Of a DNA stretch of 34,196 nt, positions 26,601 through 29,600 are shown piece after piece. Position numbers: made by a program. Each line of letters opens with the position of its first letter. Position 1 is the first letter of the stretch. Source of the stretch: a virus (taxonomy: Duplodnaviria; Heunggongvirae; Uroviricota; Caudoviricetes); the IMG/VR virus record IMGVR_UViG_2563366972_000006; one strand, written 5' to 3'.

Positions 26601-29600
26601 CTGCCGTTTATGACGGTCAGGCAGGCATTGATGCAGGCCTGGCTGATCAACTGATTAATGCTGCAGATGCCGTTGAAGTGATGGTTTTTGCACTGAATGA
26701 CTCTGTTACGAAGGAGAATGCAATGACTGTTAAAAATCTCACCGTTGCTGAAGCGGTGGCCCAGGAAAATCAGCGCGTGATGGGGATCCTGAATTGTCAG
26801 GAGGCGAAAGGGCGCGAGCAACTGGCGCAAATGCTGGCAGGTCAACCTGGAATGACGGTTGAGCAGGCGAAAACGTTGCTGGCTGCTGCGCCGGTTGCCG
26901 GTACTGACAGCACGGGTGATCAGATTATGGCGCTGCCGGAAGCAAAGGGGCGTGAGCAACTGGCACAGATGCTGGCAGGTCAACCGGGGATGACGGTGGC
27001 GCAGGCGAAAGCGTTTCTGGCGGCAGCCCCTGCTGCCGGTGCTGCAGGCACAGGCGATCAGATTATGGCGTTACCAGAAGCAAAAGGGCGTGAACAACTC
27101 GCGCAGGCGCTGGCTGAACAGCCGGGAATGACCGTTGACCAGGCCAAAACGTTACTGGCGGCGGCACCGGTTGCGGGTTCTGCAAGTGTCGGCGAGCAGA
27201 TTATGGCGCTGCCGGAGGCGAAAGGGCGCGAGCAACTTGCACAGGCACTGACAGAACAGCCAGGAATGACGGTGGCGCAGGCGAAAACGCTGCTGGCAGC
27301 CGCGCTGGCGGCATCGCAACCGTCACAGGAAACACTTTTTGATCGCTTTATGGCACAGCATGCTGCCAGTGCGGTTTCCGGTGGCGGAACTGCCGGGCGC
27401 GGGGAGGAAGACCTGCTGATGAGTATGCCGTAAGTGATATCCGGAATTCAGATAAATCAGGAGACTGAAAAATGATTAAAACCACCACGGAAAAGCGCGC
27501 GGATGTGCACATTTTTGCCGGAAACGATCCGGCGCATACCGCAAAAGCCACCAGTGGTATCAGTGCCGCCATGCCTGCACTGACGCCACTGATGCTGGAT
27601 GACGCCACCGGTAAACTGGTGGCATGGGATGGTCAGAAAGCCGGAACGGCAGTGGGCGTGCTGGCTCTGGCGCTCACCGGAACAGAACCCACGCTGACGT
27701 ACTACAAAAGCGGTACGTTTGCCACTGAGTCGCTGGTCTGGCCTGACTCTGTGGATGCGGTGAAAAAAGCCAACGCATTTGTGGGAAGTGCCATCAGCCA
27801 CGCCTGATGGGGAAATGATTAACTGAAAAACGGGTCGCGATGCGGCCCGTTTGTGTTTCTGAAGGAAAATAAATTATGGGGTTATTTACCACGCGTCAGT
27901 TACTCGGGTACACCGAGCAGAAAGTGAAATTTCGTGCGCTGTTTCTGGAGCTGTTCTTTCGTCGCACGATCACTTTCCATACTCAGGAAGTAATGCTGGA
28001 TAAAATTACCGGCAAAACACCGGTTGCGGCGTATGTGTCTCCGGTGGTGTCAGGCAAAGTGCTGCGCAGCCGTGGTGGTGAAACCCGCGTGTTACGTCCC
28101 GGTTATGTAAAACCAAAACACCGCTTTGATTATCAGCAGGCAGTGGAACGTCTTCCGGGAGAGGATCCGGCCCGCCTTAATGACCCTGCTTACCGCCGTC
28201 TGCGTATTCTGACGGACAACCTGAAACAGGAAGAGCAGGCGATTGTGCAGGTGGAAGAAATGCAGGCGGTCAGTGCCGTTCTGCAGGGTAAATACACCAT
28301 GAGCGGCGAGCAGTTTGAGACAGTGGAAGTGGATTTTGGGCGCTCTGCCGCCAATAACATTACGCAGGCTGGCGGACGCGAATGGTCACAGCAGAATGCT
28401 GACACCTTCGATCCGACGCATGATCTGGATGCGTACTGCGATTTCGCTTCCGGCACCATCAATATCGCGATTATGGACGGCACGGTCTGGCGTATGCTGA
28501 ACGGTTTTAAACTGTTCCGTGAAAAACTGGATACCCGCCGTGGCTCCAAATCTGAGCTGGAAACGGCACTGAAAGACCTGGGCTCCGTGGTTTCCTTTAA
28601 AGGCCATTACGGCGATCTGGCAATTGTGGTGGCGAAGACAACGTATGTTGACGAAAACGGGGATGAACAGCGTTATCTGCCGGAAGGTACACTGATTCTG
28701 GGGAATACCCAAGCGGAAGGTGTTCGTTGCTATGGGGCCATTCAGGATAACCAGGCGCTGAATGAAGGGATCACCTCTGCAACGCGTTATCCGAAGCACT
28801 GGGAAGTTATTGGCGATCCAAGTTGCGAATATACCATGACGCAGTCTGCGCCGTTGATGGTGTTGCCGGATCCGGATGCGTTTGTGGTGGTTCAGGTGAA
28901 ATAAGACGGGGCGGGATATTCCCGCCTTTTTCTTTAGCGCACGGGAGAGATGTGATGACAAAAGAGCAGATGACTGAACGTTTGCAGGAACTGGCTGTGA
29001 TTCTGGGGCGTGAAGCAGATATATCAGGTTCAAAAGCCGATCTTGAGCAGCGCCTGGCGGAATGGGAAGAGGAGGCCGCCGGATTCGATGGGGAGGAGAC
29101 AGGGAAGGAAGAGGTGGGCAACGATGCATCCGGCGACGGAATGCATTCTGAGCGGGGACTCGCCCGGGTGCGTATGCTGAAAACGGCGCATATGCCAGCC
29201 TGTGATGCTGTGACGGGAAAAATGTTGATGTTTGCCCGGGCCTCCAGTGTTGTGCTGGTTAATGAAGCCGCAGTTCCTGCGTTGCTGGCGGACGGTCTGG
29301 CAGAAAAAATCCGGGAGTGATGATGTTCGATAATCTGTTCGATCAGGCCATGAGTGATGCGGATGACATCATCCTGGATACGATGGGGACGGAAATCAGC
29401 ATATATCCGGGCGGCACGGAAAGAAGAATCCGTGCCGTTTTTGATGCCCCGGCAGATAACACCGGGATGAACACTGGCAGCGGCGAAATTCGTGATACTG
29501 CGCCCGTGTTATTTACCCGGAGCGCATGGGCCGCCGGTCTGAAAAAATATGACAGGGTCATGATCCACGGCGAACCCTATCAGGTAGTCGATCCCGGCTG

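Follow-up and report, generated by a model that had tools for sequence, protein, structure and literature searches.

Introduction

Bacteriophage lambda carries its head maturation protease and its assembly scaffold in one frame, the C/Nu3 gene pair, in which a serine protease of family S49 and a co-terminal scaffold are encoded between the portal gene and the genes for gpD and gpE. Nu3 interacts with the major capsid protein E in two-hybrid assays, with itself, and with C, and it is needed for incorporation of the portal protein, B (PMC3224144). The corresponding pair in phage 21, namely genes 5 and 6 (GenBank M81255; OL657228), again consists of a protease gene with a nested Nu3 analogue, and the feature table of M81255 lists inside gene 6 a 'Tri1 box / Tri box / Tri3 box' with the remark 'function unknown; putative'. 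Full-text searches of the literature turned up nothing relevant on the repeats of phage 21 or on scaffolds that carry repeats, and this feature table was the only record of the precedent that could be cited. Which parts of a Nu3-type scaffold serve which functions has been only poorly worked out. Described here is a gene of this kind from the IMG/VR virus record IMGVR_UViG_2563366972_000006 (Caudoviricetes), the whole 34,196-nucleotide stretch of which is referred to as the window. The 3' portion of the gene contains a tandem array of a small module.

A preliminary description of the window had proposed that a Nu3-like scaffold is nested in a gpC-like protease gene and is expanded by four 138-bp repeats. 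In the reading put forward here, the nested scaffold and the protease share a four-module tail, the modules serve as multivalent binding units in the procapsid interior, and unequal recombination or slippage produced the array. A probability of roughly 0.7 is assigned to this reading.

Architecture of the repeat array

The gene extends from position 25817 to position 27433 on the plus strand and codes for a protein of 538 amino acid residues, which by its open reading frame (ORF), family matches, and alignments is a gpC-like head maturation protease/scaffold fusion. It matches the Pfam family Peptidase_S49 (PF01343) with an E-value of 2.4e-33 and a score of 115.7 bits, the cut-off being 24.9. 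The best stretch, an SppA-type serine protease domain, is delineated by residues 146 to 289 (26252-26683, plus strand). The protein also matches PHROG 53, 'head maturation protease', and it is 68% identical to phage 21 gp5 over the whole gene and 58% identical to lambda gpC. The serine of a CSA motif, residue 162 of the window protein, and an HK motif, both with putative catalytic roles, are invariant in the alignment with the lambda and phage 21 proteins. In the near-identical prophage of E. coli M8, which shows 99.2% identity in this region, the homologue of 1617 nt is the sole coding sequence annotated by RefSeq at this position and is named 'S49 family peptidase', a label that would miss both the nested scaffold and the module.

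The array lies in the 3' third of the gene. Tandem Repeats Finder places it at 26800-27305 with a period of 138, 3.7 copies, 78% matches, and a score of 551, and reports no other strong array in the window. A second repeat search yielded in-register copies at 26801, 26939, and 27077, 138 nt apart and 78-80% identical over 236 nt. The self-comparison that had been suggested as a check on periodicity bears it out. When the region from 26723 to 27433 is scanned against itself, peaks appear at lags of 138, 276, and 414 nt. The identity at lag 138 is 0.62 over the region and 0.785 within the array, as compared to 0.268 ± 0.033 (maximum 0.367) for the remaining lags. Since it also exceeds the maximum of 0.398 reached in 500 codon shuffles, the 138-nt periodicity is far above chance.

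All four repeat starts quoted earlier, 26801, 26939, 27077, and 27215, are confirmed by the repeat searches and by translation to be in frame with the 25817-27433 ORF, and the four cores read EAKGREQLAQ[MA]L[AT][GE]QPGMTV.QAK..LAAA. in the one-letter code. The claim of four full 138-bp copies, however, holds for the first three only. Units 1, 2, and 3 (26801-26938, 26939-27076, and 27077-27214, all on the plus strand) are complete, with unit 1 consisting of a 31-residue core and a 15-residue linker, whereas unit 4 is reduced to its 93-nt core (27215-27307, plus strand) with the C-terminal tail in place of a linker. The array thus amounts to 3.7 copies in DNA and four cores in protein. A hidden Markov model (HMM) of the unit gives four matches of 59-67 bits at residues 329, 375, 421, and 467, the last of which covers residues 467-497 with 59.5 bits. 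At the nucleotide level, the core of unit 4 is 76-82% identical to the other three.

Two segments frame the array. The first, at 26723-26800 on the plus strand, corresponds to a predicted N-terminal helix of the scaffold (MTVKNLTVAEAVAQENQRVMGILNCQ), the end of which supplies helix a0 of unit 1. Within it, AQENQRVMGIL is conserved in both phage 21 and lambda. The second, at 27308-27433 on the plus strand with the stop codon included, is the conserved C-terminal tail (..SQPSQETLFDRFMAQHAASAVSGG...LLMSMP), for which the aligned counterpart in phage 21 gp5/gp6 is FEHFMANHSPAAVQGG...MLMAMP.

The probable internal start site and nested scaffold

The preliminary description had assigned an AAGGAG ribosome-binding site to position 26723. 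The site does exist, but as a Shine-Dalgarno (SD) sequence at 26711-26716 on the plus strand; position 26723 is instead the first base of an in-frame ATG, from which the SD is separated by a 6-nt spacer. This ATG would open a nested ORF of 236 codons (26723-27433, plus strand) that is co-terminal with the protease gene. In the alignment it coincides with the start given for phage 21 gene 6, itself equipped with an annotated ribosome-binding site. Four separate stretches of the region that it opens match PHROG 8399, 'head scaffolding protein' (E-value of 7e-49), and the region also matches PHROG 8940, 'capsid assembly protein', with an E-value of 1.7e-41. Nested genes homologous to it are annotated in phage 21, 434, N15, and lambda. 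Together, the gene context, the start of phage 21 gene 6, and the match to PHROG 8399 support the earlier proposal of a Nu3-like scaffold nested in the protease gene.

The start site was surveyed in approximately 30 distinct sequence variants drawn from 144 related loci of GTDB genomes and IMG/VR, with lineages that include Escherichia, Enterobacter, Kluyvera, Providencia, Trabulsiella, and Erwinia. In every lineage surveyed, AGGAG, GGAGG, or AAGGAG occurs 4-7 nt before an in-frame ATG at the homologous position. What the SD encodes in the protease frame varies from lineage to lineage: KEN, QEN, QED, GGT, GGN, GGR, GGS, and GV are all observed. The retention of the SD and the ATG despite changes in the encoded peptide points to selection for an initiation site. 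It constitutes the strongest evidence here in support of a separately translated scaffold, and we infer that a 236-residue Nu3-like protein is initiated at the internal ATG.

In lambda, the equivalent start is Met 309 of gpC, which is preceded by AGGAGG with four intervening nucleotides (AGGAGG-N4-ATG) and leads to a Nu3 of 131 residues. The nu3 coding sequence listed in RefSeq (NC_001416, 5132-5737) is longer, at 201 residues. No SD precedes its start ATG, and this start is not conserved: an isoleucine occupies the aligned position in the window. The suggestion that the window scaffold is roughly double the length of lambda Nu3 is therefore reasonable for the product starting at Met 309 (236 versus 131 residues, or 1.8-fold) but not for the RefSeq entry, relative to which the factor is 1.2. 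Note that both lengths of lambda Nu3 persist in databases, with 201 positions in PHROG 8940 and 131 in PHROG 8399.

Predicted structure and distribution of the module

The repeat module can be described as a three-helix unit of ∼40 residues, EAKGRE..LA..PGMTV.QAK.LLAAAP, followed by a flexible linker of ∼15 residues rich in Ala, Gly, Ser, and Thr. A single unit of 56 residues was modeled with an alignment of 55 units. The predicted local distance difference test score (pLDDT) of this model is 82-84 over residues 1-40, and the linker is predicted with low confidence or as disordered. The parts of the module in the model are a0 ([VI]M..L), a1 (EQLAQMLA), the turn (GQPGMT), and a2 (VEQAKTLLAA), with a predicted helix-turn-helix formed by unit residues 15-22 and 29-38. 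In its linker motif, ..DQIMALP, the unit echoes the segment ahead of unit 1 (NQRVMGILNCQ), and the motif is also similar to the first part of the C-terminal tail (ETLFDRFMAQH). The true repeat period therefore includes a0.

An AF2 model of the full scaffold has a pLDDT of 51 and a predicted template modeling score (pTM) of 0.17. A helix-turn-helix is again present in each unit, additional helices are predicted at residues 8-21 (N-terminal) and 202-213 (in the C-terminal tail), and the packing between units is not confident. Judging from these models, a beads-on-a-string arrangement describes the scaffold best. Such a description agrees with lambda gpNu3, which is reportedly intrinsically disordered, as stated in the title of a 2011 paper by Medina and coworkers.

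No model in Pfam or NCBIfam covers the module. Matches on the scaffold to DUF732, T2SSK, Bac_DNA_binding, and other families of these libraries were rejected as spurious, being below threshold, of zero stretch, and inflated by the repeats. Nothing similar was found among solved structures, including solved scaffold motifs, whether by sequence or by structure. A Foldseek search of BFVD returned only weak matches (E-values of 0.1-0.7), to the tails of other S49 prohead proteases for which homology was already known. The full-length model was too poor (pLDDT of 51) and was left out of the fold search.

A profile search with the unit against 1.84 billion proteins identified 2184 cluster representatives at an E-value of 1e-3 or lower, and the module is thus present in more than 2000 protein clusters without any curated model. 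Most of the representatives contain one copy, some contain two, and few contain three; four or five copies is the upper end of the module number seen. Single copies are located either in the C-terminal tails of proteases of ∼430-540 residues or in stand-alone proteins of ∼100-200 residues. Two distant carriers were inspected on their contigs. In one the module is fused to an S49 protease and in the other to a protease of the ClpP type, and both carriers lie directly upstream of genes of the gpD and gpE families. On metagenome contigs from JGI (L148 and L149), the fusion to a ClpP-family protease lies within a head region that is otherwise of the lambda type, with GpA terminase, Phage_portal_2, HDPD, and Phage_cap_E genes. 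It seems to be the capsid genes, and not the type of protease, with which the module travels. By these comparisons, the module is the conserved core of Nu3-type scaffolds and their only widely conserved element.

Copy number among related prophages

A word-indexed search for homologues of the scaffold recovered mostly truncated proteins and no full-length entry of 538 residues. For this reason, copy numbers were read from DNA loci. Of the matching database proteins (P0001-P0103), most are 'partial' S49 peptidases encoded on contigs 0.4-6 kb long. The 138-bp array is probably a place where short-read assemblies break or collapse, which could distort copy-number calls and makes those from draft genomes unreliable.

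Of 5426 finished E. coli genomes, 106 carry the gene. The four-unit array is colinear in 98 of these, with 86.7-99.2% nucleotide identity to a query of 901 nt. A three-unit allele encoding 492 residues is present in E. coli PapRG-04-4, and a five-unit allele encoding 584 residues is present in strain STEC005, where units 1 to 3 share 89-96% of their nucleotides. Colinear matches reveal five units in at least eight further genomes of Shiga toxin-producing E. coli (STEC). The comparison of homologous prophages that had been called for thus gives three, four (the large majority), or five units. The four-unit form was not found in any phage isolate of INPHARED. Alleles with two units were encountered in two draft IMG/VR contigs (L078 and L079) and in none of the finished E. 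coli genomes. They may be assembly collapses and are not relied on.

Two further observations concern the way in which units are gained. On one IMG/VR contig (L075), three internal units share 100% nucleotide identity, and in another group (L070) units 2 and 3 are both derived from the unit-3 type of the window. The earlier suggestion that the number of repeats varies through recombination is upheld by the natural alleles and by the contig with the identical internal units.

Proposed role of the module and alternative explanations

On the basis of these data, the following scheme is envisaged. The single frame from 25817 to 27433 would give rise to two co-terminal head-assembly proteins, as do lambda C/Nu3 and phage 21 genes 5/6: a long product of 538 residues, the S49 protease with a scaffold tail, and a short product, the 236-residue scaffold from the internal SD and ATG. 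The 236 residues common to both would comprise the N-terminal helix, the four modules on flexible linkers, and the conserved C-terminal tail. Each module may make an equivalent contact in the interior of the procapsid. Its likeliest partner is the gpE-type major capsid protein, and it might also contact the portal or other scaffold molecules. With four modules, both the scaffold and the protease would be multivalent. By way of the shared tail, the protease would enter the shell and later digest the scaffold there. The flexible linkers would allow the modules to reach neighboring subunits and may hold the sites at which the protease cuts. Unequal recombination or slippage between the 138-bp units built the array, and units still turn over by unequal exchange, with three to five in finished genomes. 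Binding of the module to the major capsid protein is suggested by analogy to the Nu3-E interaction in lambda and by the co-occurrence of the module with gpE-type genes.

Several points weigh against this scheme. The 236-residue product is deduced from sequence conservation. Self-association or portal binding of the module would fit equally well as a contact with the coat. The major capsid proteins of the carriers of three-, four-, and five-unit alleles are at least 96.5% identical to that of the window, and thus the exact valency is not critical. Finally, a distant two-unit carrier in Bradyrhizobium is followed by a gene for a 297-residue protein that has no match in Pfam or PHROG and no recognizable capsid family. 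A divergent capsid gene, belonging to a prophage or to an element resembling a gene transfer agent (GTA), is one possibility for this neighbor. The carrier itself, found on two Bradyrhizobium chromosomes (L146 and L147), is a stand-alone protein of 163 residues with two modules, and a PhageMin_Tail gene is located nearby.

The alternative that survives best, unlikely as it is, holds that the modules are elements for scaffold-scaffold oligomerization or for recruitment of the portal, in which case extra copies would alter the oligomeric state or the nucleation complex and not the valency toward the coat. Indeed, the self-interaction of lambda Nu3 and its requirement for incorporation of the portal (PMC3224144) are in keeping with such a role, the module does occur beside lambda-type portal genes, and the present data do not single out one partner. 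The same study, however, reports the two-hybrid interaction of Nu3 with E. Furthermore, in the scaffolds of P22, phi29, SPP1, and 80alpha it is the coat that is bound by a small helical or helix-turn-helix motif (PMC11565965, PMC11922011), and the full-length model of the window scaffold, with its pTM of 0.17, displays no confident packing between units.

An improbable explanation is that slippage or unequal recombination has left the array behind as a tolerated spacer without functional effect, in which copy number is irrelevant. It would account for the occurrence of three-, four-, and five-unit alleles with nearly identical capsid proteins, and the contig with three nucleotide-identical units does attest to ongoing amplification. 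The pattern of substitution argues otherwise. The protein cores of the four window units are 83-93% identical, and yet the proportion of synonymous differences between units (pS) is 0.44-0.75, near saturation, as compared to 0.04-0.10 for non-synonymous differences (pN). The resulting ratio of non-synonymous to synonymous rates (dN/dS) is 0.04-0.14. Judged by their nucleotides, the copies are not of recent origin, and the constraint, given synonymous saturation with few non-synonymous changes, is on the protein rather than on DNA or RNA. Between orthologous four-unit genes, dN/dS is 0.14-0.26 for the repeat region, 0.11-0.19 for its cores, and 0.23-0.27 for the linkers, with 0.07-0.10 for the protease domain. 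Each unit is held by purifying selection on the protein. The four-unit state has, in addition, been kept through ∼13% nucleotide divergence in the 98 finished genomes, where neutral spacers would be expected to decay or collapse. This persistence, together with the low dN/dS, indicates that the units are not junk.

It is quite improbable that internal initiation is absent and that the 538-residue fusion is the only product, as in gpO of phage P2, with the repeats merely lengthening a C-terminal scaffolding domain. The single coding sequence listed by RefSeq would agree with this. Without selection for initiation, however, the retention of an SD and an ATG at the exact site while the peptides differ would be hard to explain, and nested genes are annotated in the homologues from phage 21, 434, N15, and lambda. 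Lastly, the notion that the periodicity stems from an element that overlaps the coding sequence and acts as DNA or RNA (protein-binding sites or a structured RNA), for which the pattern-matched 'CII binding sites' marked in the homologous region of the phage 21 record might be invoked, is exceedingly improbable and was rejected, because third-codon positions are almost randomized between units while the amino acids are kept, a search of Rfam gave no family at the array, and across distant taxa it is the peptide motif that is conserved.

Within the preferred reading of a shared multivalent tail, a more specific proposal is offered only tentatively. The ∼40-residue module could be the long-undefined capsid-binding element of Nu3-type scaffolds, contacting the N-arm of gpE, and its copy number, from one to five, could be an evolvable dial for valency. 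It would then have been amplified independently at least twice, in an old triplication of the phage 21 type and in the younger array of the window clade, and synonymous divergence between units might have been favored because it stabilizes the array against recombinational collapse. If so, the natural alleles with three, four, and five units would represent a ready-made series for the study of scaffold valency in T=7 assembly. Sharing as they do a capsid protein, they permit a direct test of valency or length against procapsid nucleation, fidelity, and delivery of the protease.

Gene neighborhood and additional features of the window

The gene is embedded in a head region with the lambda-type order of portal, protease/scaffold, decoration protein D, and major capsid protein E, all on the plus strand. 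A lambda-type portal gene (24256-25827; Phage_portal_2, E-value of 2e-95) overlaps the start of the protease gene. Downstream are a gpD-like head decoration gene (27472-27807; HDPD, E-value of 4e-23) and the gene for a gpE-like major capsid protein (27876-28904; Phage_cap_E, E-value of 1e-66), the presumed partner of the scaffold, followed by homologues of FI and FII. The prophage is a mosaic, as is evident from positions 27876-34196 of the window and from the E. coli M8 locus (L145). Its lambda-type head module of terminase, W, portal, C/Nu3, D, E, FI, and FII directly abuts P2-type baseplate genes for a contractile tail, namely gp25/W (31631-31987), Baseplate_J (31962-32876), and Tail_P2_I (32869-33459). 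The sheath and tube genes are positioned farther downstream in the M8 homologue.

Elsewhere in the window, a perfect 9-bp tandem repeat (TTGTTGTAT, 7.6 copies, 100% matches) occupies 15226-15293 in an AT-rich intergenic region. It is flanked by an NA37-family gene (13411-14607, minus strand) and by an ORF at 15758, and it could represent iterons, binding sites, or a phase-variable tract. Rfam identifies a full-length RalA small RNA, the antitoxin of the RalR toxin, at 1557-1735 on the minus strand (207 bits). Adjoining it is a gene for a RecE-type exonuclease VIII of 883 residues (2811-5462, minus strand), and the two form a rac-prophage-like recombination and toxin-antitoxin region. A sok antitoxin RNA at 14735-14906 (Rfam, 102 bits) indicates a type I toxin-antitoxin locus of the hok/sok kind inside the prophage. 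Two adjacent phage-borne tRNA genes, for tRNA-Thr (TGT) and tRNA-Gly (TCC), are located at 17538-17691.

Comparison with known systems

Phage 21 is the closest of the systems considered. Genes 5 and 6 share with the window the gene order, the internal ribosome-binding site and ATG at the homologous codon, and the EAKGRE...LAA.P module in tandem inside the nested scaffold, of which phage 21 has three. As the three-unit version was already annotated, the expansion of a Nu3-like scaffold by repeats is not new as such. The histories of the two arrays seem to differ, however. Three-unit arrays, which are found in phage 21, Salmonella-type contigs, Providencia, and Trabulsiella, exhibit positional orthology (unit 1 to unit 1, unit 2 to unit 2, and unit 3 to unit 3, with 23-27 of 31 core residues identical) and a low core identity within the array (∼18 of 31), which argues for an old triplication. 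A comparison of core identities did not reveal orthology of the window units to Tri1, Tri2, and Tri3, as would be expected from a common triplication. The window cores are instead identical to one another at 25-28 of 31 positions, and they match Tri1 at 20-24, Tri2 at 17-20, and Tri3 at 16-18. Being alike and resembling only the first, Tri1-type unit, they suggest a separate, younger amplification or a homogenized array. By this comparison, the window array counts as an expansion of the module that was probably independent of the phage 21 triplication. It is real but largely ordinary, differing in copy number from a feature for which phage 21 already has an annotation. Of mild interest are the apparently independent amplification, the near-identical peptides with scrambled synonymous sites, and the natural series of three, four, and five units.

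Lambda C/Nu3 has in common with the window, besides the arrangement of protease and co-terminal scaffold, the conserved SD and ATG at Met 309 of gpC and the conserved AAENSRIMGILNCEEAHGREEQARVLAETPGMTVKTARRILAAAP segment. It differs in having a single module, which follows a low-complexity spacer of ∼45 residues rich in Thr, Ala, and Gln that has no counterpart in the window, in the length of the scaffold, and in its C-terminal tail.

The scaffolds typified by P22 gp8, including those of phi29, SPP1, and 80alpha, are likewise mostly flexible or disordered chains with a small helical hairpin. In these proteins the hairpin is a functional coat contact, whereas in the window it is predicted and has a short helix ahead of it. 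No kinship in sequence or fold can be detected, and the P22-type scaffolds carry one binding motif per chain and are not nested in a protease gene. The P22 scaffold is recycled rather than digested. In P2, gpO combines a head protease with a C-terminal scaffolding region in one polypeptide, as would the long product of the window, and its protease belongs to a family other than S49. To our knowledge, gpO has neither a separately initiated scaffold nor a tandem array of modules. On the strength of these comparisons, the window gene can be placed in the nested protease-scaffold family of lambda C/Nu3, and specifically with the repeat-bearing kind that was first annotated in phage 21.

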